A stretch of 61,860 nucleotides of DNA. Source: an uncultured bacterium (lineage in GTDB: Bacteria; Omnitrophota; Omnitrophia; JAHJGZ01). The translations under genes were made by a program, and so were the position numbers. Shown in pieces: positions 1-30,034 of this stretch. The stretch spans positions 1 to 61,860 of the forward strand of contig CAZLCT010000002.1 in the NCBI GenBank assembly GCA_964558015.1, written 5' to 3'. The notes under the pieces were generated by a model. That model did not search any database. It saw only the letters and a program-made list of their open reading frames with translations, and had not been told where the DNA came from. The stretch's first letter is position 1. Each line of letters opens with the position of its first letter.

Positions 1-3000
1 CTTTCCTGCATTTTAGGATCTGTTTCAACAAATGCCTCAACCCTTCCCTTCTTAAAATTGAATTTTTCGAGACTTTCCGCCGGTGTTTCTATTAATTTTT
101 TAAAAACCTGTGCTGCTATATTTTTTTTAATATCTTTTTCAAATTGAATCCTCTCAAAAGTTATAGTGACTATATTATTTTTATCAACCCATTCTATAAT
201 CTCTTTAGGAAACATTTTTGACATATGAATCCCATCTAGACTTATGTCAATAAGCATTAATCCTTCTATGCTTTTCCTTTTTGTAAAATCAATCAAAATG
301 ACCGATTTCTTCTGGGTATATTCATACTTGCCCCATTTACCTTTGAGTGGCCCTTGATTCAATCTCCGTAGAGTATCTCCAAATTGTTTTATTACATTTT
401 CTGTCTCGTGAGAAAGTTTTTCTTCCTTAGGTTTCACTCCTTTATCAACACTCACAGCATCCGATGTTTCATCCGGGCTGAGTGATTCAGCATGCTTCTC
501 TGATATAATTGCTGATAATGAAGCTAGTTTTATTTTATATTTTCTGATAATATTTTTATTCCATTCTTTTGCATACCTTTCTTTTAACTTCGTCAATTTA
601 TCGCGGTATGCAACGACTGTTTGAGCTGCCTCCTTAACCTCCCTATTCTCATCGATTCCCTTATAAAGTACTTCATTTTGAGGATCTAGACTTGCCAAAA
701 TCAGCTTCTGAACCTCTCTCGTTACCTTACCTCCCTTGCTAGTTATTAACTTATATAACCCAAGATTGAACTTCTTCGCACGTAAGACTTCCCATTGTTT
801 CTGCAACATCTCCACTGCTTCTCGTGTCACTACATTTCCCTCATCAACCGATTTCTTAAACATATTTACCTTGGTCAAAAATTCTACGCATTCCGCTTCT
901 TTTCTGGCATATAACGCTTCATACGTCTGAGCCAATGCTTTGATAGCAGCATTTATCTGCGACGTATCTTTACCGATTTGAAAGAAAAGGTGATAGGCAA
1001 GCTCAGGCGATAATCCTTGTTTTTGAGCAACTCTTAGTATCTCTTTTATTTTTTGTTCAACTTTCGTACCGCTTCTCACTAAATCATATATAATAAATTC
1101 CGTAAAATTAAACCTTTCCATTAATTCATCTATATACACCCGAGCCTTTTTAATATCATCTTCCATGCTTCCTCGTGCCATCATTATTCGAACAAATGAC
1201 AGAGGCAATCGATTTTCTTTACTGAACTTCGGAGCCTCGTCTACTATGCGACTTAACACTAATTCAGGCTCTAAATAGCCGCTAACTGTCATTAAAATAA
1301 TATAACGTGGCAACCCACATGCTCGAAGCAGTTTCTTATACCCCTCTAACGTATACCCTTTGAGAATTAGCATACGAGTCTGAACATTGGTAAAAGGCTT
1401 GATTTCTTCATCCCCCTTCCTCAATTCATTGATCGCGTTCTTAAACCGCACCGGCAATTGCCTCAACGTAAGGTTTTGCTGAAGTTGATAAATGGTATAC
1501 CGATCAAGGTTACGTAAAATCTCCCATGTTGAGTTAAAAACTAACTCGTTGTCGCATAAACGCTTTTTCAAAACAGCTTCCTGTTTCTGCGACATTCTAG
1601 GATTAAGAAAATTTCTCACTATTGCTGCGGCCATTTTACTTTCAACACCGCTGTCCTTAAAAATAGTCTCTACATATTCGCGGTTCCGGGCTAAGGACAT
1701 TTCATAGGTTATACCATTCATAAGAAGTTCTTTTGCCTGAAAATCGCTGTAGCCTTTTCCTAGAAGTTTTGCGTACTCATTATCTAACCGCGAGGCAAAC
1801 GCACGCATGCTCTCATAAGGCCACTGATATGAAGATAAATCTTGAACATCCTCTGAAGTTAACAGGCCACTTTCAACAAAATTTTCAATCATTTTTCTAT
1901 ATTCTTCAGTCTTTTTTTCGTAATTAAAGTTAAATAGATTACGTACAATTCTACCCTGTAATTCTTCTGGCAACTCTCCTGTTTCTAATGTTTGTTCTAA
2001 TTGAGTTATAGTATCCTTCTTTAATAAATCAATAAAACGTCTTGTATAAAAGACTCCTTGTTTAATAATATTATCCGGATATGCAGTTACGTCTTCACGG
2101 TCAATCGATTCTTCCATAATATTTAAACTAATATCGCCTTTCATAAAGCCCCGGTATAAAAATAGTAATTTATGCAAAATTTTATACTCCCATCCAGGAC
2201 GTACCCCCCTTAAGTTTTGTTCTACCATATTTTTAAATTCACCATCAACATCTTCATGGCGTGTTTGGGCAATGACTTTTATAAAATCATCCCTACGTAT
2301 ACTTATTCTTTTCTTCAAATAATTACCTTCGATAAGAATATTAGCAAAACGTATCAAACGTCTCCTCTTATTCTGCAGCTGTCTGGTATAATTGTTGAAA
2401 AAATATCTACGGTCATGCTCTTCAAACCCAAGCGAGATAAAAATAATGTTAGTAAATGTAGCTGCAGGAAGTAGCTTTAATATAGCTTTCCTTTGCCCGG
2501 ATGCAATAGTAGGAAGTACTCCTTTATATAAAGGAAGGCCGCATAAATAGAAATGTTTCATTAAATCAATACTGAGTCCTTCTATGGGAAAATTATCGGG
2601 TATCTTTTTTATATAAGAACGTTCAAGAAGACGTAATATTTCCTCTTCTAACTTTTTCTTTTCTTTCTCCTTTTTTTCTTTTTCCTGTTTACGCTTTTTA
2701 AGTGTTTCCCTTAAACGTTGAGAACTAAAATTGAGTAAATTCGGTATAATCGGCAGGCCATATTCTTTAAAAATAGGACCTTTTTCTACATAAAGAACTC
2801 TAGGCGTATTTCGATGTCGTAAATGCTCTCGAAGTTCTAAATAATCGAAGGGTCGTGTTTCATACTGACCTGTTAAAGTGCTCCCGCTTACAAACACCTC
2901 GTATTCTTCTTTAAGAAGTTTAATATAATAATGATCTTCATCTGTTAAACCATAAAGTGTGCTCTTTAGCCTCTTTTTCCCCTTAGGCATTTCATCGGGT

Positions 3001-6000
3001 GATTTAGTAATATACCAACGCTGAGGGCTTGGGTCTAAAACATCATCTAAAGCCTTTTTTTCAAAACTATCCGCTGAATTTTGATTTTCTCTATCAGATA
3101 TTTCTTCGTCGTCACTTCTTTTACTAATAACGCGGCGCTCTTTTTTATCCTTGATTGAACGTACACGCACTTTATGCTCTCCTTTATCAAGCCGTATCTC
3201 GCCAATTTTTTCTTTATAATCATGATCCAATATAGGAATGCCGAGAAAATGTTCATGCAACTTGATAACAAAATCTCTCAATCGCGTGTGTTTCAAATAA
3301 AATATAATACCGGCATGACCAGCTGCGAACTCGATAAAAATTGTTGGTTTCTCCCCACGCACTTCTTTTAACTCTGGAATAATATAATCTGTAATCTTTT
3401 TTGCTGTAATTGCCTCACGATATCCCCCCATGAAATTATAAAAATGACTAATAGCAAACAACGGATTTATCACAGCGTTCCATTTTTTATTTGAATATAA
3501 AGTAAGGCAGAATGTTACTAATGGGAACACTAATGGCATCGTCCACAAAGAAGGAAAAAGGCAATAATAAATATATGGAATAGTTATCAATAGTGCCGCT
3601 AAAATTATTGCGCCAATCACAGAAATTTCTTTACCTGAAAGCGGCGGTATATCTGTATAAAATACAGGCTTATTATGTTTTATCAGGCTGTCAACTATGT
3701 TACTATACTGAACATACCCTCGCAAACCATCTAAATCCAAATTCGCATATCTGTTTACTCCTGTCTCAAGAACAACAGAATCTACTTGTTTCATGATGTG
3801 TTCGGGTACTTTACTTTTAATAAAATGTTTAGCAAGATGAAATATAAAGTTGGCATCATTTGTTGAAAAATAAAGCATGTCATTGCTTGCGCTGTTCCAC
3901 ATCCGATGAAGCGCAATCGACACAACGATTATGAGCGGATGTGTGCTGAATAGAAATGGCGCATTAAAAATTATTCCGCCAACAAAATGATACCAATTAC
4001 GTCTTTCTTTACCGTGTGCCCCCCAGAAAATAAACGCATTCACAATTGCAACAATACCTAACCCGCTGTTTATACCGTAAAAAGAGGGAAAGAAATTAAG
4101 GAATGGCATAAAAAAATCGATAATACTAAGGCCAAATATAGGAAGCCGTGAAGCAGCTGTGATTTTCATCCATTCTTTAAAACTAATGTTACTTATCCTA
4201 AGTTTGCGTAATAGAACCGACGTGTTCCCAAAAAATCTCTTTAAAATAAAAAGCGGTATAATACTTATGTAACCTATCTCCTCGATCCACGGCGCATAAA
4301 ATACTTCAACATTGTGACGACTCTTCTGCCATTCTTTCTCAGTCATCCCTTTAGGTTTTGTATCGAGCCCGAATAACCGGTACATCTCGTCAAGAGTGGC
4401 AGACTCTGTGTCCTTTGTGGCACCCCGTTGTTTGCTTGTTAAGTTTTTAGCAAAGTAATCTACCGTAATACCATAGAAACGCATGCGATCTTTTAATGTT
4501 GCAGGTGCTATGCCTAATAATGCCGCAGCCTGTTCGGGATTCCCCTTGGCTGTACGTAATGCTGCTATAATGTCACGTTTTACTTCTTGATGTCTTTTCG
4601 ATTTCACTTTTTCATATAGTGGATGCCTAAATGATTTACTCTCTAACTCATAAATTGAAATATCTAATAATTCAGCTGCTCTCGCTATATCCTTACCAGA
4701 CATTTCCCATACAACTTCGAATAAAAGTAACTCAAGAGCGCGGAGTGAGCGCCAGCCAAAATCAGGAATTGCCTTACGTGCGAGTAAGTCTTTTTCTAGC
4801 TTATATTTTTCCAGCAATAAAGATAAGCTTTTCTGGGAAGGTCCTAAGTTATATGACATTGCGCGCACATCATTTTCATAGCGCTGAGCAGATTGTAATA
4901 CGGCGATTTTTTTCAGCCCCTCCAACGGCTTTTCAAATTGTGGAATGAGATATTCTTGAAAATACAAGCTAATAGTAGCATCATCATCCACACTTTCGTA
5001 CGCTCTTAGATATATATTAGTAAGATAGCGCACACGCTCTTCAATATTGAGAAACGAACCCGGTTTTAGATGCTGCACGAGGAAACATATTTCATCTCTA
5101 TTTAACATTTTCTTTTTCTTTATGGTTTCGGTGAGTATCTCATGCAGATCTCTCCGGAATTGTCTATTGCGGCCACTACACAAAGTTTCAATCTGTTTGA
5201 TACTAATCTCACCCTCTAAAAGATCATTAATTAAATCCCCATTAAGAATAATATATACAAGAAGTTGTTGATCCGTGAGAAAACCTGGTTTATTAGAATA
5301 TTTAGCTTGGGTGATAAGTGCAAGGGTGCGGAAACTCTGAATGGAAGAAACAGGGATAGAGTCCTTATCATCTAAATCAACAGCATACATCCTTATCGGC
5401 CTAAACCATTTGACTATACTTCTAAGAGGTTCCTGAAGGTTGTGGAAAATGATGGAGAGTTGCGGAAGGTTACGAACTAAACGAGAAATAAATGGTTTCC
5501 AGCTTCTAGATAAGTCAGAAACAAAATAGTTTTTTACATTTTTAAAGAAGTTTTGTACAGTTGTGCGGACGGTTGGGTTGGTCCAGAGGAAGGATAAATA
5601 TAAAATAACCGCTACAATCCCGATAGCGGATGAAAAATATTGTGATACAAGAAGCAGCTTAATCTGTCCAAGTGTCTCCGCACTTACAATGTGCAAAATA
5701 AAACTTTTAAGTGTAGGGATAGTAAGAAATCCTATACCCATAGCGGCAAGCACGCAAACTATATTCAATACCGTAGATCCTTCCTTTCCTTCTATTGAAC
5801 TTCCTTTTTTGAGCTTTACTCCAACTTGGTCTTGAGTGTCTTTTTTCTCAAAACTGCTTAAATCCATGCCGGTTAATTTGGCAATACCTGGATCAATTAT
5901 TGTCTGAATAAACTCATGTCGAGCGATTTCAAAGATAATTCGACGAATTTCATCTACTGACATACTATTCAGTGTTTCCAACAAATCATAAACCCTTTCA

Positions 6001-9000
6001 GAAGAAGGTACTAATTTATCTACTGAGGAGAAATATAGAGGTATGGAATCTCCTTCTAATTTATTGAGTAAAAGGTGCGTCGCAAGGGCATAGGTTATTG
6101 GAACCTCATTTTTTTCGTTTTCTAAAATTGAACCTGCCCACCACTTTTTTATTATTTCACAAGGATTAGGAGCATATGCAGCAATTGCTAATTCACCCAA
6201 CAGGGCGTCAATGGCATCTCCAATGGCAATACAATCTTTTCTGCTTTTTATAATACAGTTATCATGCATTAAATATTTCATTATTTTTACTAAATGACTG
6301 TCAGGTTTCAAAACTATACGAAATAAATATTCCTGAATTGGAAAAGATGATTCTATCTTTTTCCATAGATAGTTCTTTTGAGCGAGAAAAATATCTGAGA
6401 CCAAAAAATATTTAAGGTAATTATCCAACCAAAGGTTACCTTTCAATAAATCTTTCTTATCAGTATTAAAAACTTTGTTCCACTTCCAAGCTTGAAAATC
6501 TCTACCCATACAACCCGGCAACAAAACTACATCCTGAGGTTTCATTTTACCTCTTTCAATAATCCTCTTGATAAGATCCTTATAAATAACAATATGTTTT
6601 TGTTCTGAAAAATTTATTTGTGCAACGTAATACGTTTTTACATTCGAATAGTCTGAATAAAAACGGGCTTTATGTATATCGTACTTTTCTCCAAAAAATT
6701 CGTATTCATCTGTTTTTTCAATTAAACAAAGTTCAGGAATAAGAACCTCTTCAGCCTTAAGTGAATCAGAAGTCCGAAATGAAAATAGCACCAACATCAG
6801 GTCATACGGCATTAAAACCTTATTTACAACATCTTTCAAATATTTACCGAAAAGTTTAAGATTTATTTCCTTCTCATCTTTAAATGCCAAAGCTGAATCG
6901 CGAAAGATCTTCTGTTGATCTGGCTCTAGCAATGCTGAAAGCTCCAAAGACGCATTTATGAGCTGGTCAAACGACTCAGCATTTATGTGGACTAAAGGCT
7001 GAGTATGCATTCGCCTCCAATTTTTTTCATACCAAGCACAAATCTTAAATTCCGGCTTATTTACACCCGGAAACATCTTGCTTATAATGATAAAAGACTT
7101 CATATTCATACCGAAGCAGCGTTTATAAAGTTTATGTAATTCTTCAGAAACTGCTTTTCTTTGCTTATTGTTCCATAGAATAGAAATATCTAATTGTGCT
7201 TTGATATCGCTGAGAAATCTTTGAATGGTTTTCTGGTTAATATCATGAAACAACCGAGAACTACTCATATGCATAAGTTCATATAAAATAGTATCGGTTA
7301 AATCATCTGCAGGTATGTTGCTATAATTTAAATTTTTGCGCATCTTTTCAAATTCAGAAGCCTGGGCACCACCTAATAAATCAATATCGTTTATTTTCAT
7401 ATGTAGGGTTTTATGTGCAAAAAAAGCGGAAAAATCTTTTTCGAAAAAATCTTCTTCTGCCGGATATAAATCCCAGCCAAGTTCAGCTAATACAGGATAA
7501 TCCTCACGCAATAAATAAACGACAAATTTACGTGAAAAAAACGATTCAAGATATTGTTCGGGTCTCCCCTCAGATTCATTTAAAGATAAATATTCAATCG
7601 AACCCGGCTCCTGCCTCTTCTCAGCATTCATTACCTGATAAAAACGCTTCCTTATCTGAGCCGAAAGAAGTTCACGCCATAAAAATGAACCAATTTCTCT
7701 TAAAATGAATACTTTCCAACAAAGATCTACAGACACTTTATCCTTCATGCGCCTGCTCATTATCTTCTCATGTATTAAAGTAAAATAACTCACTGACGAG
7801 ATCAAATCTGCATAGAATTTTGGTATGGGTGCACTTAAAGTTTTAAGAACAGACACTATATTAAAAGAAGGCAGAAATGTCATTTTTTTTATATCTTCAT
7901 CGGATATAATCTTCTTATCATAATCAGGCACTAAAAGAGTACAATACGCTGAGCTTTTTTCTACCCCTTCCTTCTCAGTATAATCTTTATGAATAAATAT
8001 TCTCTTCCCAATGACCGTATCTCCAGTGGATGCTGAAACATTCAGATAAAAAAATGCAGGATCCGGATAAAAAAGGCCTTTCAGGTATGCAGGCATGTAA
8101 GATACTATGTTTGTAAGAAATTCAGGTGAAATTGGTCGCGCCAATCCTTGAGCGGGCCTGTCACTATCTGCCATATTCGTGCCGAATAAATAATCCTTAA
8201 ATTCATCAAATCCCTTAATTTTTTTCATACTAACAATACTAAGAGGTGACTCAGCTATGGTCTCTTTTAGGACAAAAGGACTTCCTTCATAATCGCTAAT
8301 AATGTCTTCACTTGTCTGTTCCTCTTCTGTTTCCTCCGGTGTTGTCTCTTCTGTTTTAAAGTCTTTTTCTAAAGTAATAGTTTCTGGAAGCAATAAAACT
8401 TGAAAAGGTTCTAACTGTTTCACAAATTTTAAATCTTCTGCGTCAATCTTACATCCAGTTCTTAATATATGGTCTACGACTTCTTGAGTCGCAGCATCAA
8501 TTTTAACAGACTCACTAACAGGCTCTGCTAATACAGGCAAAAGTTCTTTAGTCTCAGGAGGAAGTTCTTCATATAGAGAGAGCGGCTCTTGAGGTTCTGA
8601 AACCGTCTCATCAATAGGCTCTGGATCTACAAAGATAGGAATTATATCTTCCTGAATAACTTTTTCCTTTTCTTCAAGCTTATCAGGAGAAGTAACCTCA
8701 TCTTGAGGAAAAAGAATAATACCAGTTGCTGCCCCTGGTGTTCTCTCAAAATCGCCTAATTCTAACATTTCATAAGCAGGTTTAAGCTCTACAGACTTCC
8801 TAGGCTGCTCTTCTTTTTTATCTATTTTTACAATTTCACCAGCACTCTCTTTTGCTGTAGGTTCATCAATACATACGTCTATTAATTCTGCTAATTCTGA
8901 AACTTCCTGTACGTAAGCAGGATCTTTCGGGTCTATTTCCCTTTTCTTTTGAGCAATTACACACGTACCCTTACCAAAATGCCTCCGCAGCTTACGTTCT

Positions 9001-18000: not shown

Positions 18001-21000
18001 AGGACTCCGCGGTCATTAACACACAGAGCTTCCCCCTGAAGCTCGTAGCGGTATTTCCATAAATTTTCAATCCACCTTATGGACAGGTTTTGATTTGGTT
18101 TAATTTGTAAAATATCCTGTATGTCTTTTTTAAACTTTTCAAAATTATGCTTTGTATTTTTACTTTTACTCATTGCATAAAGCGCAGAATGACTCATCGT
18201 CTTTAATAAAGGCATCCCCTGAAAAGAGACGTTAACAAGTTCCTCGATCTTTTCTTTATTAGCAGTAACTATTTCATCAATAAGGTAATGATCATATTGA
18301 TTTCCCTTAGCCTTTATCTTTATTAGAAGACCTAATTCTGTAAGCAAAGGTCGAACTTGTGGTATCAATATTTCATCAAGTTTTTGTCCCTTTAGTTCAG
18401 AACGCCGTTCCCAAAGACGCCATATGATATTCGCTACTTTCCCTTCAAGAATGCGTTTTTGTTTGTTTTCAACCCCAACCTTTCGGTACTTTAGTTCTCT
18501 AGAAGAAGAACCCTCGTATTTCTTAACAATATTTTTCATTCTTTCTTCAGTTCGATAGGAGATAACTTGTTTTTTCATATTAGTGCATAAAAAATCAAAC
18601 CATTCACGATTAGTTACATACAATCTCTCCATAAAGGATTCTTTTGGATCCTGATATACTGGAAGTTTTTTGGAAAAAAGATGCGGTTCAAGTAGTTCGG
18701 TTACCTCTCGTGGATAGTGTCTAAATGCTTCCTGAAAGATTCTGAATATATTAAGGACCGCTGTTAACCTTTTAGCCGGAGTGCGTGGCCCAAAAAGAAG
18801 TCCCATAATAAAAAGAATAGTATCGCCCTTGAGCGTTTTTCCTTCATATGTATAGGTATATTTGTCTTTTCCTTTCAAAACTCTAAGTAAAAGTTTTTCG
18901 TCTTTTATTAGTTTTGTTACTTTTTTAAAAAGTTTATCTTCATCATATCCGTAAGGAGAAAAAAAGTTCAGCATATCACGAAGAGTTTCTTCATCCCCAG
19001 ATGGTTTAGCCTCTTCCTTTTTTGGCTCAGACAATGATGCCTCCTCCGCTTTTCCTTTTCTTCTTACCTTGCTTTTTTCTTTATTAAACTCAAATTTACT
19101 AAAACTTTCTCCATGTTCTTCTTCAAACTCCTCAAGCTGATTAATAGCATTTATTATTGCTTCGCCAAATTCCCTTTTCAATGTATCTTGAAAACTTTCT
19201 TCGCCACCTACATCTTTATCTTTTATTACACCAAAAAGGTCAATCATGAGTTCCGTGGTTAATTCTGTATTATACCTTTCTAAACGATAATCTACATACA
19301 TCTTCATCGTCTGGACAACTGCAGGAGGATCATTTCCTATCCTTTTCTTTAACTCTTCTTTTATAAAATCAATACCTATTAAAATCTCACGGCGTAGCTC
19401 CTGGTTTCTTTTCTCTTCTTTCGACAAAAGTTTTTTGGCTTCTTTTGATGTTTCCGCATTCTGCCTCGAACTACCACCGCCAATAATGCTATTAACGGGT
19501 GATTGCCATGCTGCAAGAGGAGGATTTGTGAAATTAATATTAGCATTCCATACACGCTGTTGAGTTTCAGAAATACGATGCTGCTTTTTGAGATCTAATC
19601 CCTCACCAGGCAAAATTTCACCTCTTGCTTTACCTTTTATGCTTCTGCCTTCTTCCTCTTCTCCTTCTGCTTTAATCATTGCTCCTAAGGCATCTTCTAT
19701 TCGACTGAGTGCATTCATTATCTCTGCCGTAGGTTCAGTTTTAACTTGCTCTTTTAAGAGACGGCGAGTCATAACAAGACTTTTTCTTACCTTTTGTAGT
19801 TGAGAGGGGAGTTTTATAAACACCTTGCGTTCAGAAAAAATATTGGTAATTGACTCTGTCTTTTTAATTGCTACACGGAACATGCCTCGTTCTATAAGTG
19901 AACGTAATTCACTCATATGACTCCTAATCATATCAAGAAATTGACGCTCTTCTTCTAGCTGTGTAAGTAGTTCTTTTATACGACTTTTAACTTTTTCTCG
20001 AATTCGTTCTATCTCACCGATGCGTTTTTCCCTAAGATTTTCAATAGCTAGATTTATCTGACCTATGGCCTCCTTATATGATTCTTGTTCTAAGAATCCT
20101 TCGGAACCAACAATTTCAAGCAGGTGTGTATATGCATCCACCTTGCCTTCCACATGCCCACGTTTAAGCCATACTAAAATATTCCACAATGTTTGCAGTG
20201 CGGCTTCATGATTAAGGCGTGATACGCCGTGCTGCCAATCGGCAAGATATTCATCTCTTACGTATGTAAGGAGTGCAATATTATCAATAATAGTAAGGAT
20301 ATCATCATCCTGACTTTCTAAAATATGATTATGTGCGCGAATTGCTGTAAGTAAAGAATCATAAATAATCTCTACCCACATTTTCGTACTTATCTTATGT
20401 TCTCCTACAAACTCTTTTATCCATCGCTGCTGCAATACCACAACTTTCCTGTTAACATCATATTGTGCTAATCCTAATTCTGTAATAAACTCTCCCATTC
20501 GTTTATCAACATCAAATTCCTCTCTTCGACTCTCTTTGAACAAACGAATACGCTGCCAAAATAGTTCATTCGCATGGATACGGAATGTTCTGCGCACGCC
20601 TAGCAGTGTGGCACTCACAGCACCTGTATTCCCTTCACTGAAGAGCGATAAAGCACGAATTAGTTGTATTTTCCCTTTCTCACGCAGTAATTCTCTCTTT
20701 TGTTCATTCAGCAGTGTTAGCTTATCATCATCCTTAGCCTCATATGCTTCAAGAATATCTCGATCGGTTTCTTTGATATTTATATTAATTTCATCCAACC
20801 TAATGCGCATATCTGTTGGGTCTTTTAAAATAAAAGAAAATGTTATCTCATCATTAATACGCTGTATCTCATTTCTGATTTCACTAAGTTCTTCAGACTT
20901 AAACTCTTCAATTCCGTCTTTCTTGATTCGACGTATGCCAGCCATAACACGCTGAAGGCTAACATTTAATTGTAATAACTGCACCGCCCGGCTTCTAAGC

Positions 21001-24000
21001 CACTTCTCTTCTTCAGAAAAATTCATCTGTCTTTCTTCCTTTGCTTTCTGGGGTGTTTTTCCCACACCACTACGGGTGCCAGAGGTACCACTACTCATTG
21101 GCGAACTATATGCTGCAAGAGGAGGGTTTTCGAAATTAATATTAGCATTCCACACAGCTTTCTGTTTTGGAGAAATATAATGCCCACCATGAGGATCTTT
21201 TCCTTCACCAGGGAGAATAACTCCTGTTCCTTTAATTTTAAGCTCGGCTGTTTCCAGCCCTTTCCGATGTTTATATTGCTCATAAGCTTCATAATAGAAT
21301 TCGCTGAATTTAATTACCATCGGCGGGAAAAAATCTCCAACAAGCAATTCACGGATTCCCCCTTCTTCGCTAAAAATCAACTCACGATCTTTATTCCTCG
21401 CCCCGATACTATACTTTTCGATACTTTCTTTCGTATGTGATTTGCTTGTGTAACCCATTTCATCTAACTCAGTAAACCCTTCAACATCCCCCACCCAGAT
21501 AAGTTTTATCTTTTTATCTTTAACGATCATCCTTATATTTTCAGTATGCATGTCTGACTCTATAAATGAATCTTTTTCACCTACATCAAGATGCCAACCT
21601 TTGTAACCGGCATGATGCATTTTTGCTAAAAGCACAGCACATTGTTTAACTATATCCGTTTGCATTTCCTTAATGTCGCCACCATATAAATTAGGGTTCT
21701 CTTTAATGATTTTATCAAACCCTTCCCGTCCTACATTTAATAAGCGCCGCCCGTCATTATTGTATTCGAATACTGCAAAACGTAATGGCCTTTCATCATC
21801 GCATATCCAAGGCTCATCTTCTCTATACATAGAATAGGTACCATGAGGCATCTCACATAAAAGAAGCGGCCTTATCATGGCTTCCGGATATTGTGCAGAA
21901 ATATCTTGAGAAAAATAAAAGTTCTTTTTATTAATGATTCTTCTTTTTTCCAAGAGACCGGGAATTTTTATCTCAACCGCATAGTTGACTGTACCATCGG
22001 CATTCATTTCAAAAACAATGTGGCGCCTGAATGACTCTGTCACCGGTGTAATATAAATATTTCCTTCCAAATTAAGATAATATCCCTTTCGCAAAGCATA
22101 GCTGAGTGACCCTTCAATACCAGAAGGACGATACTTCTTATCCTTATGATCGAACCGGCTGCGTAATGTTGATGCAATTTTCAAAAGCTTTTCTGCTTTT
22201 ACTGCATTGGTAAACAATTCAAACATATCAGGATGTTCTTTCCTAAATTGTGTATCTTTATTCTCAAGCACCTCTGCCATATCTTTATGTGAATCTATAG
22301 TACTGGGTAAATCCTGTGCTGATAATTCATTGATTTCTTCCGCTTGCCAAATGCGAGCGGGACGTTTTATTGAAGGTAATGCACAAAACCATTGTATTTC
22401 GGCCTCACCTTGTTCATATTTCTTTATTTTATCTTTAACCTCAACTATCCTTTTTTGAAAATCAGGATCATTCATGACGCATTTAGCAATCTCATCAGCT
22501 AATCCGTAGCTTGCATCGCTCACTCTTTTATCTGAAGTAAGAGGCAATCCATGTGTTGTATACGTCAGGGAGTCCGCATTCTCATGATAAGCAATAAGAG
22601 GAAAAAATATTGTACTTAAATTATCAGCCAATATTTCTATGTTCGATAAGAAGGAAGGAATCCCGTACAGCCTTGGTTCTTTGTTATAGTAGTCATTCGG
22701 TATCGCATATTCATTCCTATGTTTTTCATTTGAATAAAGTTTCACACTAGCAAAGGTAAGATATAAAGCTTTCTCTTCATCAATATGCAACGATTTTCGT
22801 AACCGTTTAAACAAAAACGGTGCGACGGTCCAAAATACAAGACTTGTTAGATTCTTGTTAGGAAAAGGGGGACGAATACCGAATATGCTACTTGCTTTAT
22901 CTTTTCTAAAATATCGAATCAATGCCTGGGTAAATTCTTTTTCCTCAGTCCGCCTGAATTTATGAAGCATACGCACAGCATGTGTATTATGAAAGCAATG
23001 CCTAAGCAGAGAAAAAAGCTCCGCAACCTCCTGCTGTTCATCTTGATTGTACGAGGCCAAGATAGATTCTTCTTGGTCTAGGTCCCTTTGATCAAGCATA
23101 TCCCATGTAAGTTTGTTAGTATATGGTTTACCCTCATTTTCTTCTTTTATACGCTCATAAAATTGCGTTAAACGGGGGCTTTGAAATGTCAGTTTGCTAA
23201 AATGCCATGATGCATTTTCACGTTCCGCATGTAATAATATTGTGATATCACGTTCTATTTCTAATTCCATTATTCTTTTTTTTGCCCATTCTGTTAATGA
23301 TTTGATAAACGCCTTATCGGTTGCCTTTTGTATTTCCATTGGGAGATTCATTATGAAGAAAGCCAGACCACCTTGATCACGTATATAATCCTCTTTTTTA
23401 AGTAATCCCTCTGTGTGATAAGGTAATAATTCTTTACGGAATTTCAGTAACTTATCAAATTCTTCCCGTGCAGCAGGATTTTCTTTCAAAACTTCTAAAC
23501 CCTCAATTAAATGTTTCACTCCGGGATGCCTTTTTTTGTAGTATTCCGCTAATCCTTCGACTGAATCAGGAATATCATCTTCTGAAAAAGTGGCGTTTGA
23601 CACCGCTTTTTCATCTGCAGGCATATACTTAATTAACATATCCCTGCGCTGCCACTTGTAATTAATGTCTAGTGCACTCTTAATCTGTGTAAGATAAAAA
23701 GCATCCTTCATCATAGGTGTTTCATTAATAGTACGCAGATTCGCCTGTCCTTTAAATATCCGGATTGTCGAAGTTTTCCATGCATTAATAAATTCAGGAG
23801 TGAGACGCCTTAAATCAATGCCTAAAATGCGCGAACCGGTCGAAATAATTTTGAAATTTTCACTCACCTTTAATAAACTTCCCCCCTCTTCATCCTGAAA
23901 ATATTTTTGAACGCGTTTATCATCAAAGAGGTGCTCCAAATCAGCTTTGGTCATATCATTAACCGCTGCTTTTTCCTTACCCGCAAGAATTACTTTATGC

Positions 24001-26651
24001 CCTCGCATAAGCAGCATTTTAAGAAGAGGCATATCAGCAATAATTTCACCTGCGTTATCAACCGCATACAAAATTACCTGGGCTTTCATTTTAATACGTT
24101 GCTGCAATAAACCGTAATCAAACGCGTCATCGGCAAAAAGTCCTTTCTTCCCGACGACAGACTTCAGCTGCTCTTTTATGTTAAGTTTTCTGTCAGACAA
24201 TTGTTCGGCACTTTTCGGATCGCCATAATCCATAGCATTACCAACTATTGATGCTTCTATTGCAGCAAGGAGAGGATCTTTTTGTTCTGAGATAAGATTA
24301 TCAATCCAATCCAACTGGGCAAGCATTGTTTTATTATTTTCAGTTTTAATGTCTTCATACGGATCTCGAACTCCGGTCCCTATACGGATAATTTCATATA
24401 AAATATCTTGTATATCCCGAAAATTACTCCCCTCAACAAAATATTTATTCACGCTGTATTGAATAGCTTCCTCCACCTTAGTTCTAATCTCTTGATCATC
24501 AGTTGCAAGTTCGATAGTTTGAACCGCGACTAATCTATTACGTTCAACCGATAACTTGCGTTTATTTTCATCTGATGGAAACATATCCGGATCAGATGCG
24601 TAAGGATCAGCTACTACATCTGACGGTGGAAGTGGTGGAACTTTCAAATTTGTCTTAATCGCTTCAACAAATTCTCTTATTGTTATCTCTCCACTATGCA
24701 GTTTATTTCGTAAATCAGCGCTAAAATCCTCATCATCCGAAGGATAGTCTACTTCCACAATCCTTTCCGTGCTTTCGGCAGCGGTTACTGTCTTACCCAA
24801 TGCATCTGCCTCTTTTTCTACCAAACTCATGAGTTTTGGGATGTCGTTATCTCGCAACGCGTGTACTAATTCATTAGGATCTAAAAACGTAACAGATTCT
24901 CCACGGTTTCTTGCACTTATAATCTCCGTTGCATATCTGTTCCAGAGTTTAATTTTTTCTTTAGAATCAGGGTCATCAAGAATTGTGCGGACAAGTTTTG
25001 GTAGGACCTCTTCGCGAAATGTTTCTTTTTCAGTTTTACCTATTTTTTTATAATCGGCAATTGCCGAAATGACTTCCAAAGTACCAGCGCGGCTTCCTTC
25101 GTTAATACCAAAATACTTCTTGTATCCTGCCATTATTTTCTCATACAGATTGTTCTCCGGAACTTCGGTAATACTCGGTGTTACAACCATGTATGACACA
25201 CCATTTTCTTTAAGCGCTTTTGTTATACCCGGTGTGTGGTAACCTCCAGTTACTAGAACTATGGGGTTTACAGAGTGCATAGCGCTGCTAAGCGCCCCAC
25301 GCTTTGCACTTTGCTCTATGCGCTTTGCCTGCTTAAGGGTGTTTTCAACAATAGCTGTCTCACGTTTTTCAGCGAGGTCGTAGAAGCGCTTGAATAGAGG
25401 GAGATGTTTATCAAGATTAAAATGTTGCAGGTCGCGAGTTGCGGGTCCCTCGACTTCGCTCGGGATCCTGAGTTTGTCGAAGGATTGCGGGTTAAGAAGT
25501 TTATCAACTCGAGACTCGAGACTCGCAACTCGAAACTCGTCTTTATACTTACGAAAGTATGCCACATCTTCCGGAGTTGCTCTCAATGTAAGTAATTTCT
25601 TTAGTACTCTAAATATTTCAATAAGCTGATAGAGCTTTTTTTCCTTAGGCGTAGCTAAAAATTTTGAAAGCACTTTTTTCTCTAGTAGAATACGTTCTCT
25701 ATTTAGAGCGCCTTCATCAATATCTTCTACAAGCCAGAGATAATGCAGGTAACGATTGATATTCTCATATTCACGAAAATCTATTTTGTAGCTAAGTGAC
25801 ATTTCCTTAAGAAACTTGTAATAATCAACAGCTGAGAGGCGTTTTCCCTTAAAATCTATCTCTTTATACGCGATGAGTTCAATATCTTCTTCTTTAATTG
25901 AAGCATTATTGATAAATTTGTTTATGAGGTCATTTGTCTCAAACTGAATTCTTCCGAGGTTAATCTTTTGTTGATAGACTTCAATCTCACGCAATTTATT
26001 AAAGTTTTTGTAAGGAGTAGTACTGATGCCCGTTCTTTCTGTGCTATTTAGCACATACCTGAAGTATTGAATTGGGTCTTCGGGGTTTTTGTGAAACCTC
26101 TCCTGCTCATCCAAAAATGAGCGTAATTCATGCGAAAAAACAGTTTTCTTGAGTGATGAAAGCGTTCTTTCAATGCCGGTTAAAAATATGTTGACCTGAT
26201 CCTGCAATGCATGCGCTTTTACATATGTTTCTACATGCTCCACGTACAAATCTTCATGGTCAACGCCAAATAATTCGACGGGATCATCGGAAATTATCGA
26301 ATACTCTTCAGGTCCGGTTATTGTTCCCTCCTTTACATAGACATTAATAATTTCCTCCCTCTTATCTTTAAGAGGAAAAGCCCTGAATAGTGACGTGTCT
26401 ATCTTACCTGAAGAACCTTCCACGCAAACTGTATCTATACCGAATTTCTTTTGAACCACCCCTAGAATACTCTCAATATTTTTCTGAGCTTCATAGTTTG
26501 CGTGTGCGTTCTGGATGTAGATTACCAATGGAGACTTTTTGCTTGATGTATCGAATACATCCTGAATGCGTCCAATATCGGTTGGAATATTAATAATCTC
26601 GGCCAGAGAAGGAATAGGCATTGCCGGTTGTGCTGTTGCCTGTGGTACATT
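1..26651 (-). CDS. Giant multi-domain, membrane-spanning protein; N-terminal 8,883 codons only, ORF continues beyond the window start
   Basis: I read the minus-strand frame whose codon low coordinate is divisible by 3 from 26657 down to 3 and found no TAA/TAG/TGA. The upstream in-frame stop is TAA at 26658-26660, and the first ATG after it is at 26651-26649 (MYHRATAQPAMPIPSLAEIINIPTD...). The other two minus frames and all plus frames hold only short ORFs. It is probably absent from the track because it has no stop in the window. The translation is protein-like throughout, with the domains listed below. The start codon is uncertain because there is no Shine-Dalgarno (see findings). Confidence 0.9.
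3480..4330 (-). other. Region of giant ORF: polytopic membrane block (about 6-7 predicted TM helices)
   Basis: Hydrophobic runs IGYISIIPLFILKRFF, LPIFGLSIIDFFMPFLNFFPSFY, GLGIVAIVNAFIFWGA, YHFVGGIIFNAPFLFSTHPLIIVVSIAL, ISVIGAIILAALLITIPYIYYCLF and MPLVFPLVTFCLTLY. Confidence 0.55.
4465..4750 (-). other. Region of giant ORF: two further Fis-type HTH-like modules
   Basis: LELLLFEVVWEMSGKDIARAAELLDISIYELESK and VKRDIIAALRTAKGNPEQAAALLGIAPATLKDRMRFYGI. The second is close to the HTH_8 consensus. Confidence 0.5.
5375..5800 (-). repeat. 2-TM hairpin plus juxtamembrane module, copy A
   Basis: GSTVLNIVCVLAAMGIGFLTIPTLKSFILHIVSAETLGQIKLLLVSQYFSSAIGIVAVILYLSFLWTNPTVRTTVQNFFKNVKNYFVSDLSRSWKPFISRLVRNLPQLS...PIRMYAVDLD. 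The 37-nt perfect match to copy B is at 5635-5671. The antisense track ORFs 5563..5835 and 10525..11109 share the same N-terminal 36 aa, which confirms the duplication. Confidence 0.85.
9120..9480 (-). other. Region of giant ORF: class-I methyltransferase-like segment, apparently degenerate
   Basis: EDGAFDVVNLDFYETIARNTHLSPDQKVKFFQELNRVVALDGYLIISS resembles the post-motif-II/III region of SAM methyltransferases (FDxV...L...l.e..RvLkpgG.l.is). No clear GxGxG motif I lies upstream (ISFHEFHLSSG). Confidence 0.25.
10335..10760 (-). repeat. 2-TM hairpin plus juxtamembrane module, copy B
   Basis: EASSYLISLFGILGVCAFLTKYIKSFIPHIVSSETIGQIKLLLVSQYFSSAIGIGAGVLFLSFLWTNPTVRTTVRNFFKNVKNYFVSELSKSWKPIISSLVRNLPQLS...PIKMYAVDPD. 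High (estimated ~85%) nucleotide identity to 5455-5715 over about 260 bp, including a 37-nt perfect match (10597-10633). Confidence 0.85.
11400..12800 (-). repeat. Tandem array of about nine alpha-helical repeats of ~47-50 aa (TPR/Sel1-like) in giant ORF
   Basis: The recurrent anchor (D/K)YP(D/N/H)AKGVK.Q..YI...Y..LA..F is followed by AEELINKAY.IL. Anchors sit near 12690, 12540, 12400, 12265, 12118, 11972, 11828, 11690 and 11550, giving a period of about 140-150 bp. Confidence 0.7.
13870..14570 (-). other. Region of giant ORF: four tandem Fis/NtrC-type helix-turn-helix (HTH_8-like) modules
   Basis: Unit 1: YIEKEAIRCALMITGSDETLAAGLLGISCNSLKDKY. Unit 2: VEKKIIEHALSLKNGVAYKTASLLGIGREKILRKIREYGI. 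Unit 3: YIEKKAIKNAFNIADGNISHAIKVVELF. Unit 4: LEEEVIRKIYKGDKSKTARKLGISRTTLYKKMKKYNI. Unit 4 is a near-consensus Fis-type HTH and was verified codon by codon (13861-13920). Confidence 0.6.
14785..14850 (-). other. Predicted single transmembrane helix of giant ORF
   Basis: LIELMSFMGFIGIVSFLLWYFF is the first strongly hydrophobic segment, about 3,930 residues from the start. Confidence 0.5.
14960..15240 (-). other. Region of giant ORF: RelE/ParE-superfamily toxin-like fold (tentative)
   Basis: IRFTKGFFRSWKNISGVEKKQLIKNIGEMVKNNTHNPLVIKGAPVQDIQNRLFVLYTKKTGLVYTFTNEKNTRLLVVYVGKKQG follows the RelE/ParE layout. That layout is an N-terminal helix pair, then L.G....yR.Rv..yRlvY......i.vl.vg. Verified codon by codon at 15001-15120. 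No catalytic residues assigned. Confidence 0.3.
15700..17080 (-). other. Region of giant ORF: TPR-like alpha-helical repeat region 1
   Basis: Repeated helix-pair pattern with A/Y/L spacing, e.g. NPLAKYLLAISMGYDEEWDSALRVYSEVL and GHYYFERRSYTGAISLFDKAVEL. Followed by a highly basic patch KGRKKEKRKYKRKKH at about 15240-15325. Confidence 0.45.
19497..19628 (-). repeat. Motif module copy 2: GEILPGEGLDLKKQHRISETQQRVWNANINFTNPPLAAWQSP
   Basis: Second copy of the ILPGEG...VWNANINFxNPPLAA motif, about 1.6 kb downstream in the same frame. Also followed by a Gly/Ser-rich stretch (IIGGGSS). Confidence 0.8.
21096..21236 (-). repeat. Motif module copy 1: GVILPGEGKDPHGGHYISPKQKAVWNANINFENPPLAAYSSP
   Basis: Direct intragenic repeat with 19497-19628. 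Shared nucleotide core gctgcaagaggagg.ttt..gaaattaatattagcattcca.aca. Followed by a Gly/Ser-rich stretch. Confidence 0.8.
21440..22120 (-). other. Domain of giant ORF: protein-kinase-like fold (Kdo/Bud32/APH-like), possibly divergent or inactive
   Basis: AVLLAKMHHAGYKGWHLDV...SDMHTENIRMIVKDKKIKLIWVGDVEGF resembles the HxDxHxxNI catalytic loop and the xDxE/DFG-like metal loop of small atypical kinases. It is preceded by beta-rich sequence and a FEY hinge-like motif. Verified codon by codon at 21481-21660. Confidence 0.4.
23640..24450 (-). other. Domain of giant ORF: DUF89 / ARMT1-like damage-control phosphatase domain
   Basis: ILYAVDNAGEIIADMPLLKMLLMRGHKVILAGKEKAAVNDMTKADLEHLF (DNAGE at 24043-24057) and IRIFKGQANLRTINE (23739-23756) match the DNxGxE, NDxT and KGxxNYR-type motifs of DUF89 (PF01937). 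Both stretches were verified codon by codon. Confidence 0.6.
25150..26560 (-). other. Domain of giant ORF: Tiki/TraB/ChaN-like (EreA/ChaN/PMT superfamily) predicted hydrolase fold
   Basis: N-terminal motif PLVIYIQNAHANYEAQKNIESIL...DTVCVEGSSG (26491-26522 region). C-terminal motif NPIVLVTGGYHTPGITKALKENG (25224-25253). These resemble the H...E and GxGH signatures of ChaN/TraB/Tiki proteins. Motif-level only. Confidence 0.35.
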
Positions 26652-26873
26652 ACCTGTTAGTGACGTAACAGTAAAAACCACTACCATACATAAAGCAACA
26701 CACTTACATTTAGAAGTTTTAAAATAAGTTATAAGGGTATTTTCATCCATATTTGATTATCCGATCTATTCTCTGGAATACTATTGTGATAAAACCATGA
26801 AGTACAAATCTAAAGTGTCATCTTGAACAGCGAGTAATGTGGTGGATTTGGCCTTAAAAGTACTTTAATCAAT

Positions 26874-26915
26874 AAAAAAAGCCAGCCACAAACATTAATC
26901 ATGTTTGCAACTGGC
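26874..26915 (-). terminator. Rho-independent terminator closing the upstream (DUF362...) transcription unit, just ahead of the giant gene
   Basis: On the minus strand the arms gccagttgcaaacat / atgtttgtggctggc form a stem with a 3-nt internal mismatch and a 5-nt loop, followed by T7 (plus-strand A-run 26874-26880). Confidence 0.6.
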
Positions 26916-27274
26916 TGTCCTAGGCAATACGTTTTTGAGTTTACCTGTAGACCCTATAGTTTTGTGTCACCAGGTTTCCCTGACTTTACCAAATAACTAT
27001 ACTATATGTTATAGGTTATATACTTTATAAAAGTATTTAATATAATATACCATATAAGCCCATTTTTTACAAATTTAAGCTACTAATAATATATTTATAT
27101 AATATATTGATAATAAATGCCTTATGGCATAAATCTTACCAAATATAAAAAATATGGGTGGGGATTTAGAAAAGTAACATAAAATTTACATAATTAAAAT
27201 AAATGGATGAAATTGAAGAATCAAAAAATAAAGAGGTAAGATGATGAAAAATCTGAAGTTTATAACAAGTTTAA

Positions 27275-29115: not shown

Positions 29116-29947
29116 TTCTATTAAGAGTCCAATCGAATTTAAGATATTCTACTACATAATTCCCACTTAAGATAAAATTTCTTTGTTTAGGAAGATATGA
29201 ACTAAGAAAATTAAGAACGGCCCGTTCACGCACATTAAATTTCATTAGTTCACTTTTTTCATTACTATATCTTCTCACAAAATCAATGCCGAACCACTTA
29301 AATAACATCGATAGATAAATCTTTTTATTATTTTTATCAATTTTAACATTCCTCTCTTCCGTAATATACCTGAATACATCTTCTTCTAATTGTATATTAA
29401 TATACATACCTAAGTATGCCTCATCACGCAATCTAGGAAACCCGCGTGCAGGGCCAACAATAGCAAAATGGGCACGTTCATCATTAAACAACCCACGCAA
29501 ATATGTATGCTTAATCTCGTTCAAACTTATTTTTTCACCAAAAACCTTAAAAACTTTCATGCTCGGTCTTTCTCTTATCTCCGTAATCTTATCTGCATAT
29601 GGGTTTTTAAGATGTAACGATAAGGAAAATGCATTATACGCATTTATCCAAAAAGCAAACTTTTCACCTCTAGACCATCCTTCATATCTTTCATGTGAAA
29701 GTGAATCAACATCATTCAGGAATTTATAAAGAAGATGTTTATTCTCCTCCAATAATACATAATCAATGCGACCTTCTTTAAGACAACTTTTAAGTGTAAA
29801 TTCTAAATCGAGATAAAGAAAATCATCAGCAGAAGCTTCACTCGTCATATAACAAAAAATAAGCAATACTCCTATCACCCATCTCATAATGGTATACTCC
29901 CTTTTAAAGCATTTCCCCAATATGCTCTTTGTAAAATATTTTTTCAT
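29093..29947 (-). CDS. DUF547 domain-containing secreted protein
   Basis: EKFAFWINAYNAFSL motif of DUF547. A signal-peptide-like MRWVIGVLLIFCYMTSEASA suggests a true start near 29887. Confidence 0.6.
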   Translation of the reverse strand: MKKYFTKSILGKCFKREYTIMRWVIGVLLIFCYMTSEASADDFLYLDLEFTLKSCLKEGRIDYVLLEENKHLLYKFLNDVDSLSHERYEGWSRGEKFAFWINAYNAFSLSLHLKNPYADKITEIRERPSMKVFKVFGEKISLNEIKHTYLRGLFNDERAHFAIVGPARGFPRLRDEAYLGMYINIQLEEDVFRYITEERNVKIDKNNKKIYLSMLFKWFGIDFVRRYSNEKSELMKFNVRERAVLNFLSSYLPKQRNFILSGNYVVEYLKFDWTLNRIDKKNEK

Positions 29948-30034
29948 TCTCCCTTTTTTAATATATCCTATAAAAATATTTAAAAAGATATACGGCTATT
30001 TTACTCTAAAACACCTTGTTATTTCAAATGTATA

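Follow-up and report, generated by a model that had tools for sequence, protein, structure and literature searches.

A predicted c-di-GMP-I riboswitch precedes a truncated giant gene, most probably from an Omnitrophota bacterium

Introduction

Omnitrophota bacteria carry giant genes that have long been puzzling: the catalogues list thousands, almost none with a known function, and no account of their regulation is known to have appeared. Among complete Omnitrophota genomes, 93.8% encode one or more proteins of 10,000 amino acids (10 kAA) or longer, and short-read metagenome-assembled genomes (MAGs) typically break such genes at contig ends (bioRxiv 10.64898/2026.06.07.730766). In the catalogue compiled by Nielsen & Lui, 94% of proteins carry a signal peptide and/or transmembrane (TM) helices, 80% of clusters are singletons, and the Omnitrophota long proteins combine conserved architecture types with a sequence-unique background (bioRxiv 10.64898/2026.06.07.730766). 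Here we analyse a gene whose product most probably belongs to this class of very long proteins with a signal peptide, TM segments and a mosaic build. The window, by which we mean the whole stretch of DNA under analysis, has 61,860 nucleotides (nt) and 35% GC, and belongs to contig CAZLCT010000002.1. It represents essentially the entirety of a ~62-kb contig assembled from short metagenome reads with MEGAHIT (ENA assembly ERZ27227322, contig k141_2819103, 61,936 bp), to which the DUF362 gene beside the giant frame led. Positions 3 to 26750 of the window's minus strand hold the first 8,916 codons of a giant open reading frame (ORF), whose stop codon is absent from the window and from the contig, and a predicted riboswitch for cyclic di-GMP (c-di-GMP) lies directly before it.

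The gene resembles those encoding the very long proteins of Nielsen & Lui, above all the multi-enzyme/mosaic class, in that it is a huge single ORF in what appears to be a small-genome, Omnitrophota-like organism. Its product is likewise predicted to combine a signal peptide with many TM-like segments, as judged by hydropathy, is largely sequence-unique, and is broken at a MAG contig end. As in their class 1, it is laid out in unrelated domain tiles with no dominant repeat, here an ARMT1-like domain, helix-turn-helix (HTH) units of the HTH_8 family, tetratricopeptide repeat (TPR)-like helices, unnamed domains W, X and Y, and an N-terminal head module. Against the catalogue threshold of 10 kAA, 8,916 amino acids (aa) are visible here, and the ORF continues past the contig. 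Unlike the largest giants of the catalogue, which hold 20-50 Pfam domains, the visible protein has few (ARMT1-like, HTH_8, TPR), and unlike those giants its gene has no type II secretion system (T2SS), pilus, glycoside hydrolase (GH) or transposase genes in the 35 kb upstream. Neither the head module nor the riboswitch of this gene is mentioned by Nielsen & Lui.

The Archaeovorin-type giants of Velamenicoccus archaeovorus and its relatives offer a second comparison. They share with the present protein numerous TM regions, TPR, enzyme-like domains placed where they would not be expected, a stretch without known domains near an N-terminal signal peptide, and a proposed connection to c-di-GMP. 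West-Roberts et al. reported that most giant genes have PilZ genes downstream and that GGDEF domains occur within giant genes (bioRxiv 10.1101/2023.11.21.568195). In contrast to the Archaeovorin-type giants, the visible part of the present protein has no SecA_DEAD, GT1, GGDEF or C39/S8 domain. A Pfam search of the 8,916 aa in chunks of 1,000 aa, with a limit as loose as E 0.5, gave no divergent SecA_DEAD or SecA preprotein-binding domain, although the missing 3′ part could hold one. Since no SecA_DEAD domain was found in the visible part, the protein should not be filed as an Archaeovorin. Its predicted link to c-di-GMP is a switch in the leader RNA, which West-Roberts et al. did not report for Archaeovorin-type giants.

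For the leader RNA, a described counterpart is Bc2, upstream of cap (encoding collagen adhesion protein) in Bacillus thuringiensis, which was experimentally shown to be a terminator-based c-di-GMP-I ON switch (PMC4933901). In both cases, a GEMM-I aptamer in the 5′ untranslated region competes with an intrinsic terminator ahead of a gene for a large envelope protein, and expression is repressed by default with read-through at high c-di-GMP, which for the present gene is predicted from folding. The present gene differs from Bc2/cap in its host, a candidate phylum of the Planctomycetes-Verrucomicrobia-Chlamydiae (PVC) group, in its length of at least 26.7 kb, and in its non-adhesin domain content. 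As compared with the DUF89/ARMT1 phosphatases, the corresponding sequence here is one domain within a 1-MDa protein, and its predicted location is outside the cytoplasm.

A single reading frame of more than 26 kb

The stop-free stretch of the minus-strand frame runs from 26756 to 3 (26,754 nt, 8,918 codons); the runner-up among all six frames of the window has 2,433 nt. An in-frame stop lies immediately upstream of 26756, and the ATG at 26750 is the first start codon thereafter. From this ATG, the in-window product has 8,916 codons, a mass of 1,035,329 Da and an isoelectric point of 8.5. The source assembly's gene caller reported the same frame as one 8,913-aa product leaving the contig end. 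An original prediction, made from the letters of the sequence, had already described this uninterrupted frame, and the limits that it gave, 26657 and 26651, fall inside the stretch and in the same frame; however, neither is a start codon, and its count of 8,883 codons has to be replaced by 8,916. It was right that the in-window product approaches 1 MDa, that the two neighbouring minus frames are full of stops (688 and 1,061), and that a chance open frame of this length is effectively impossible. It had also guessed correctly why the accompanying ORF track omitted the frame: the lister skips it since the frame leaves the window.

From base composition, the probability of 8,916 stop-free codons is ~1e-320. 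A codon model trained on the window's 36 other ORFs gave a positive log-likelihood ratio in-frame in 29 of 29 blocks of 300 codons, and strongly negative ratios in all 29 blocks for the two off-frames of the giant ORF. GC content at the first, second and third codon positions (GC1, GC2, GC3) equals that of the neighbouring genes. Moreover, a 149-codon cassette occurs twice in the protein, at 5.3 k and at 7.0 k residues, and its two copies differ with a ratio of nonsynonymous to synonymous substitution rates (dN/dS) of ~0.32, which shows protein-level selection in the frame of the giant ORF. A chance open frame is ruled out by this probability together with the coding signal in every block. An altered genetic code is ruled out as well, because all three stop codons are missing over the 8,918 codons and recoding cannot yield a frame without all three. 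The minus-strand stretch 3-26750 belongs to a single genuine protein-coding gene, of which the contig end leaves the 5′ part.

Because the contig ends inside the gene, the 3′ part of the gene was not assembled. For its continuation, the last 1,200 aa in the window had no match or overlapping fragment among 5.8 billion proteins, and the last 500 aa had no match in a metagenome scan.

A predicted c-di-GMP-I riboswitch before the giant gene

A gap of 524 nt separates the upstream DUF362 gene from the ATG of the giant gene. On the minus strand at 26903-27000 lies a match to the c-di-GMP-I (GEMM-I) aptamer (RF01051; 58.2 bits against a gathering threshold of 35; E 8.5e-9; model positions 1-87 of 87), which is the only Rfam match in the window and had been missed by the original prediction. 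A consensus scan placed a promoter-like site, TTGTAA-17-TATATT with a TG extension, at 27044-27072 on the minus strand, 44 nt upstream of the aptamer; eight such sites were found as against 5.3 expected in shuffles, which makes this a weak promoter candidate. A terminator scan identified a candidate expression platform, an intrinsic terminator with a 16-bp stem and a U-tract (26870-26916, minus strand), whose hairpin spans 26916-26880 and is followed by the U-tract, with the ATG 120 nt downstream. Eight bases, 26916-26909, belong both to the 3′ strand of the aptamer's P2 helix and to the 5′ arm of the terminator.

When the leader was folded without constraint, the terminator formed, with a minimum free energy of -45.0 kcal/mol (z -4.8). 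Enforcing the aptamer gave -26.7 kcal/mol and made the full terminator impossible, leaving a short AU-rich stem detached from the U-tract. Because the terminator fold is favoured over the aptamer fold by 18 kcal/mol, transcription would be off by default. Binding of c-di-GMP would then lock the P2 helix, block the terminator and permit read-through, such that the giant protein would be made in the high-c-di-GMP (attached or sessile) state.

Additional evidence for the aptamer came from related loci, which share with the giant gene the N-terminal head module described below. In an alignment of six related aptamers, 94.7% of cells are paired, as against 27-40% in slid controls, although the alignment was fitted to the model and so favours the structure. 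Half of the aptamer pairs (10 of 20) changed on both sides across the six aptamers, and none of 500 shuffles did as well. An aptamer of the same clan lies upstream of the head-module gene in 7 of the 140 loci with enough upstream sequence (L002, L003, L022, L036, L064, L135 and L147), always on the strand of the gene, and 39-497 nt before its first start. The closest relative, L002, has an RF01051 aptamer of 56.6 bits before its head-module gene, that of L064 reaches 50.8 bits, that of L003 falls just below threshold at 34 bits, and L036 carries the GGC variant; L022, L135 and L147 were added by a covariance model built from the related aptamers.

Two of these loci have a pair of GEMM-I-type aptamers before the head-module gene, ~1 kb apart in L064 (8520-8649 and 9506-9595) and ~8.7 kb apart in L147 (808-934 and 9548-9648); these could be tandem or independent switches. 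In another locus, L061, a c-di-GMP-I-GGC aptamer (2277-2365; 72 bits, gathering threshold 59) lies downstream of a stand-alone head-module gene, and presumably controls the next gene, which is cut by the contig end. In two loci unrelated to each other, L021 (5519-5948) and L036 (5685-5760), the head-module gene has a tmRNA (transfer-messenger RNA) gene 2-4 kb upstream, accompanied in L021 by transfer RNA (tRNA) genes. Genes for tmRNA are common integration hot spots, and the regions that hold these two head-module genes may be variable.

Neither of the two reference preprints on giant genes (Nielsen & Lui; West-Roberts et al.) mentions a riboswitch, and a full-text literature search for riboswitches and Omnitrophota returned unrelated papers only. 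A c-di-GMP riboswitch before some head-module genes, one giant included, appears to be undescribed.

The export leader and the head module

The product begins with a positively charged n-region followed by a hydrophobic core (MDENTLITYFKTSKCKCVALCMVVVFTVTSLTG...). Its opening, MDENTLITYFKTSKCKC, then the hydrophobic core and ...ATAQP, make a typical predicted export leader. A signal peptide or signal anchor was assigned by hydropathy to aa 1-41 (26628-26750; like all features of the giant gene given below, on the minus strand), with the hydrophobic core at aa 17-35 and an ATAQ-P motif. The leader is followed by the head module (25116-26627, aa 42-545), recognisable by the motifs IQ(D/N)AHxNYEAQ, VEG, RExA(I/L)VxN and TGG(F/Y)HT. 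When the first 1,200 aa were used as a query, there were four protein matches, all through approximately aa 42-545 and each after a hydrophobic leader of its own; a hydrophobic leader also begins the homologous head-module proteins. The two named proteins among the four are partial "Candidatus Omnitrophica" proteins.

A scan with the head-module profile of one genome per species in the Genome Taxonomy Database (GTDB) confirmed at least 555 relatives, of which the best 80 were listed. Nearly all of these 80 are titled Omnitrophota, and a few are labelled Planctomycetia, Elusimicrobia, Ratteibacteria, Auribacter or Theseobacter. The top two matches (44% and 42% identity) come from one marine-biofilm Omnitrophota MAG, JAHJGZ01. 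At least 561 further relatives were confirmed in metagenomes, and among the matches listed none is closer than 32% identity. There can be several head-module genes per genome, with L002, L003 and L076 sharing one MAG.

The head module forms the N-terminus of the ORF in every locus. Among the best 80 genome loci, 40 ORFs leave the locus or contig end, and the completed ones encode 504-3,793 aa, either ~500-590 aa (the module alone) or 1.8-3.8 k aa. The stand-alone form (500-590 aa) accounts for 18 of the 39 completed ORFs in genome loci and for most completed ORFs in metagenome loci. Judged by sequence, the head module marks out a large family centred on Omnitrophota. Members consist of the module alone or carry it N-terminally in proteins whose size ranges from 1.8 to more than 8 k aa, and the module appears to be undescribed as a family marker. 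On the same grounds, the host of the giant gene is most probably a member of Omnitrophota.

The residues Q80, H83, Q89, E111, G162, Y337, R463, G502, G503, H505 and P525 (numbered as in the window protein) are invariant. The module has no match in Pfam or NCBIfam, and profiles of the whole module and of its core had none in the PDB. A confident AlphaFold2 model built on a 15-sequence alignment (predicted local distance difference test, pLDDT, 81; predicted template-modelling score, pTM, 0.70) suggests a small alpha/beta core interrupted by a long helical bundle. A Foldseek search of this model against the PDB gave nothing significant; the best E value was 0.019, with unrelated helical proteins, and the erythromycin esterase EreC (6xcs_A) came at rank 18 (probability 0.21, E 0.61). 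The invariant H83, E111, R463 and GGxH505, in the pattern H...E...RDxx(M/L)xxN...GGxH, are reminiscent of motifs in the TIKI/TraB/erythromycin-esterase/ChaN superfamily, to which the module may conceivably be related.

A body built from cassettes

The visible protein was scanned with Pfam and NCBIfam, as halves and in 1,000-aa chunks. These scans returned only four kinds of match: ARMT1-like/DUF89, Fis-type HTH_8 (aa ~4100-4294 and ~7394-7424), weak TPR, and a methyltransferase-like stretch below threshold. Directly recognisable is an ARMT1-like/DUF89 domain, related to damage-control phosphatases, at 23676-24521 (aa 744-1025; PF01937, E 1.4e-35, 123.4 bits against a gathering threshold of 25, model positions 15-296 of 311). 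A PDB sequence search of the giant protein returned DUF89 structures only (2g8l, 2ffj and 1xfi), and the domain holds a DNAGE motif at aa 898-902, which is typical of the DUF89 family. The NCBIfam equivalog level was not reached (NF040824, 71.5 bits against a cut-off of 440), and the relation to DUF89 is best read as domain-level membership only.

With aa 1201-2400 as the query, an exhaustive HMMER search of 1.84 billion cluster representatives yielded 136 matches, 68 of them below 1e-10, which resolve into the unnamed domains W, X and Y; 13 of the 136 matching proteins also carry the head module, including P0048 (7,979 aa) and P0025 (4,634 aa). Domain W (22437-23081, aa 1224-1438) occurs in three tandem copies in P0021 (34-35% identity) and matches P0036 at 42% identity. 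Domain X (21381-22283, aa ~1490-1790) is covered by 109 of the 136 matches, and is found in four copies in P0020 and also in small proteins (300-600 aa), P0026 and P0056 among them. Its conserved columns include ESFRRH, DxHxxN and a later D, and its profile had no match in the PDB or Pfam. The DxHxxN...D pattern is reminiscent of kinase-like catalytic loops, on which basis a protein-kinase-like fold may be conjectured; a single-sequence AlphaFold2 model of the domain was unusable (pLDDT 36.7). The helical domain Y (19731-21023, aa ~1910-2340) has relatives of 30-35% identity in P0025, P0030, P0048 and other proteins, and one of 71% identity in the fragment P0023.

Self-comparison showed that domain Y is flanked on both sides by a junction motif of ~80 aa (...ILPGEG...VWNANINFxNPPLAA...), followed by a Ser/Gly-rich stretch. 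Copy 1 lies at 21003-21254 (aa 1833-1916), and copy 2, with 48% identity to it, at 19410-19652 (aa 2367-2447). The motif is present twice in P0019, the closest body relative, and has no other occurrence among the sequences compared; it could be a linker, a docking site or a processing site. A small conserved module further on (17229-17624, aa 3043-3174) matches P0019 (41% identity) and the loci L119 and L082. P0019 is 52% identical over 430 aa and 41% identical over aa 3045-3174, and because the spacing of its modules differs it is not a collinear orthologue. When the whole protein was compared by tblastn with 80 genome loci, nothing was found beyond the head module, and with 80 metagenome loci only three short modules were found beyond it.

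A TM-like segment (14781-14858, aa 3965-3990; hydropathy) is followed by two tandem Fis-type HTH units (13869-14582, aa 4057-4163 and 4174-4294; Pfam HTH_8, E 6e-20, and HTH_50), with NCBIfam matches to the C-terminal HTH of NtrC/AtoC/Fis. Free Fis acts as a dimer. The tandem Fis-like units, of ~100 aa each and directly past the TM segment, could form a membrane-tethered intramolecular pseudo-dimer. Next come ~10 helical TPR-like repeats of ~70 aa each (11448-13649, aa 4368-5101; self-comparison); weak TPR signals (TPR_12, TPR_14, TPR_19) fall at aa 3357-3390 and ~4985-5140. The cassette used above for dN/dS is a 2-TM hairpin, found by self-comparison and hydropathy at 10329-10775 (aa 5326-5474; TM-like segments 5339-5357 and 5378-5403) and again at 5367-5813 (aa 6980-7128; segments 6993-7011 and 7032-7050). 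Its copies have 50-70% aa identity, and 84% nucleotide identity over a 300-nt direct repeat. Between them, a stretch at 9117-9326 (aa 5809-5878) gives a sub-threshold hint of an S-adenosylmethionine-dependent methyltransferase (Methyltransf_31, E 0.018).

A third Fis-type HTH unit (4446-4703, aa 7350-7435; HTH_8, E 3e-7; 31% identity to unit 1) precedes a polytopic membrane section with five TM-like segments by hydropathy (3504-4145, aa 7536-7749; segments 7536-7554, 7557-7575, 7592-7612, 7709-7727 and 7731-7749). The in-window stretch after it (3-3503, aa 7750-8916) has no detectable relatives, and its coding signal is still positive. Altogether, hydropathy gives the leader and at least 10 further TM-like segments, which makes at least 11.

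The Pfam and NCBIfam scans found no adhesin, RTX, dockerin, SecA, peptidase, glycosyltransferase, GGDEF, nonribosomal peptide synthetase (NRPS) or polyketide synthase (PKS) domain in the 8,916 aa. The absence of Ig, cadherin and RTX repeats noted in the original prediction therefore holds in the Pfam scans, but chunked self-comparison showed four other internal repeat families (junction motif, HTH units, helical repeats and 2-TM cassette). The mosaic of enzyme-like, DNA-binding-like, TPR-like and membrane modules that it described was borne out, with all four kinds detected (ARMT1/DUF89, three Fis-type HTH_8 units, TPR-like repeats, membrane modules). Its comparison with Omnitrophota was apt, in that relatives of the sole conserved N-terminal module are almost exclusively from Omnitrophota MAGs. 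The rarity that it attributed to genes of this size is true of prokaryotes overall but not of Omnitrophota, given the share of complete genomes cited above, and the search for orthologous giant ORFs that it suggested yielded no collinear orthologue (tblastn, 160 related loci). The body of the protein is, on the evidence of these comparisons, a string of cassettes, some of which are also present in other long proteins, differently ordered and in different numbers of copies.

Genomic context

In the remaining 35 kb of the window, ORFs of at least 100 aa are all on the minus strand save one short, overlapping plus-strand ORF (29889-30245), which was judged to be spurious. All 2-kb blocks have a negative GC skew, with more C than G on the plus strand. 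Strand bias and skew are consistent with a position within one replichore, with genes co-directional with replication.

The upstream neighbours of the giant gene are ordinary chromosomal genes of the housekeeping type; they encode a Glx-tRNA synthetase (GlxRS), MscS, a corrinoid adenosyltransferase (CobO), thioredoxin reductase (TrxB) and a peroxiredoxin, and also a HAD hydrolase, a glycogen-phosphorylase-like protein, a flavin adenine dinucleotide (FAD)-dependent oxidase, a Bax-inhibitor protein and the DUF362 protein. Among the ORFs scanned in these 35 kb there are no secretion, pilus, glycoside hydrolase or transposase genes, and among the window ORFs scanned there are no c-di-GMP proteins (PilZ, GGDEF, EAL). 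Five of the neighbours, GlxRS, TrxB, the phosphorylase-like protein, CobO and MscS (P0155-P0159; 27275-61379), each form a 90%-identity cluster of their own, with no other member among ~15 billion proteins. These five housekeeping singletons point to a sparsely sampled lineage without a close sequenced relative. Of two further minus-strand ORFs, 34833-37181 encodes 782 aa with a weakly ribosomal L7/L12 C-terminal-domain-like N-terminus, long coiled-coil-type matches and no real family, and 53585-54448 encodes an unusual fusion protein in which a DUF1016 N-terminal domain is joined to a staphylococcal-nuclease-like domain.

Proposed role and alternative explanations

The explanation that we consider probable for the locus as a whole is a genuine gene of the Omnitrophota very-long membrane mosaic class, led by a riboswitch and encoding an envelope protein that c-di-GMP switches on. 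The leader would send the head module, and perhaps ~3.9 k aa up to the TM segment at 3965, across the inner membrane, and the later TM segments would stitch the remaining protein to the membrane. By parity, aa 3991-5338 (tandem HTH units and helical repeats), the inter-hairpin sections and the third HTH unit would lie on the cytoplasmic side, a placement that fits DNA-binding-type modules. The product would be a scaffold stitched to the inner membrane; as has been proposed for the giants of Omnitrophota, it would act at the envelope of cells that live attached or interact with a host.

Several points weigh against this explanation. The same parity topology would put the DUF89 domain and the kinase-like motifs of domain X in the periplasm, which is odd; similarly implausible localisations were reported by West-Roberts et al. 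(bioRxiv 10.1101/2023.11.21.568195). About 90% of the giant protein has no match in Pfam, the PDB or NCBIfam, and its last 1,200 aa have no relative in the protein and metagenome searches. SecA_DEAD, C39/S8 peptidase, GT1 and GGDEF domains and flanking T2SS, pilus, GH and PilZ genes were not found in the window. The riboswitch was found before only 7 of the 140 related head-module genes and so does not characterise the family as a whole, and its ON direction is predicted from folding. The phylum assignment comes from one protein module, and the neighbouring housekeeping proteins are singletons. Finally, the stop codon, the total length and the downstream genes lie past the contig end, and a single polypeptide is an assumption.

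This assumption is challenged by the possibility that the ORF yields a polyprotein or several products, through internal starts or through proteolysis at the junction motif or by the head module, were that a hydrolase. Such a reading gains from modules that occur free-standing, such as the head module in nearly half of the completed genome-locus ORFs and domain X in its small proteins, and from the junction motif that brackets domain Y and recurs twice in P0019; self-cleavage was also raised by West-Roberts et al. for giants with an N-terminal C39 or S8 domain. However, no peptidase domain was detected by Pfam, neither structure nor sequence searches gave a significant match between the head module and a hydrolase, there are no stops between modules, and selection holds one frame open over 26.7 kb. 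We regard several products as improbable.

An assembly chimera, in which the short-read assembler joined strains or paralogous long genes, is far less probable still. The origin of the contig (MEGAHIT, k141), its end inside the gene, the internal repeats of 84% identity and the multiple head-module genes per genome would all favour such an error. Yet every join would have had to keep frame and codon usage and to avoid stops over 26.7 kb, composition and codon usage stay constant over the length of the ORF and match those of the flanking genes, the 84%-identity repeats share no 141-mer, and a second contig carrying the neighbouring gene has nearly the same ends. A classical giant surface adhesin or RTX-like exoprotein, suggested by the size, the predicted N-terminal export signal and control by c-di-GMP, which often governs adhesins (PMC4933901, PMC6366702), or alternatively an NRPS/PKS megasynthase, is scarcely credible given that neither Pfam scan found Ig-like, cadherin, RTX, VCBS, TSP3 or dockerin repeats or condensation, adenylation, ketosynthase, acyltransferase or carrier domains, and that the protein has a helical composition rich in K, E, L and I, multiple internal TM-like segments and cytoplasm-type HTH modules.

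A riboswitch-led membrane mosaic at the cell envelope is accordingly the explanation that we retain. The giant ORF itself adds one more case to a known phenomenon, and shows how genes of this kind are cut short in short-read contigs. What is new is the regulatory link, a predicted c-di-GMP riboswitch previously unremarked. Its position directly before a gene of more than 26.7 kb makes the timing of giant-gene expression testable, with the prediction that expression of the giant protein tracks c-di-GMP, the attachment signal. The head module, of which more than 1,100 copies were found, could help to find, classify and align giants that are otherwise unalignable.

A broader and tentative proposal, which we think rather unlikely, is that all head-module proteins, from 500 aa to more than 1 MDa, belong to one undescribed Omnitrophota system. 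The exported head module, with its invariant His/Glu/Arg/His set, would serve as a common export, anchoring or processing unit, possibly a TIKI/EreA-like hydrolase, for shuffled cassettes, and the system would be c-di-GMP-switched in the sub-lineage that includes the present gene. If true, this would tie giant-protein production directly to the transition from free-living to attached life in these episymbionts or predators.

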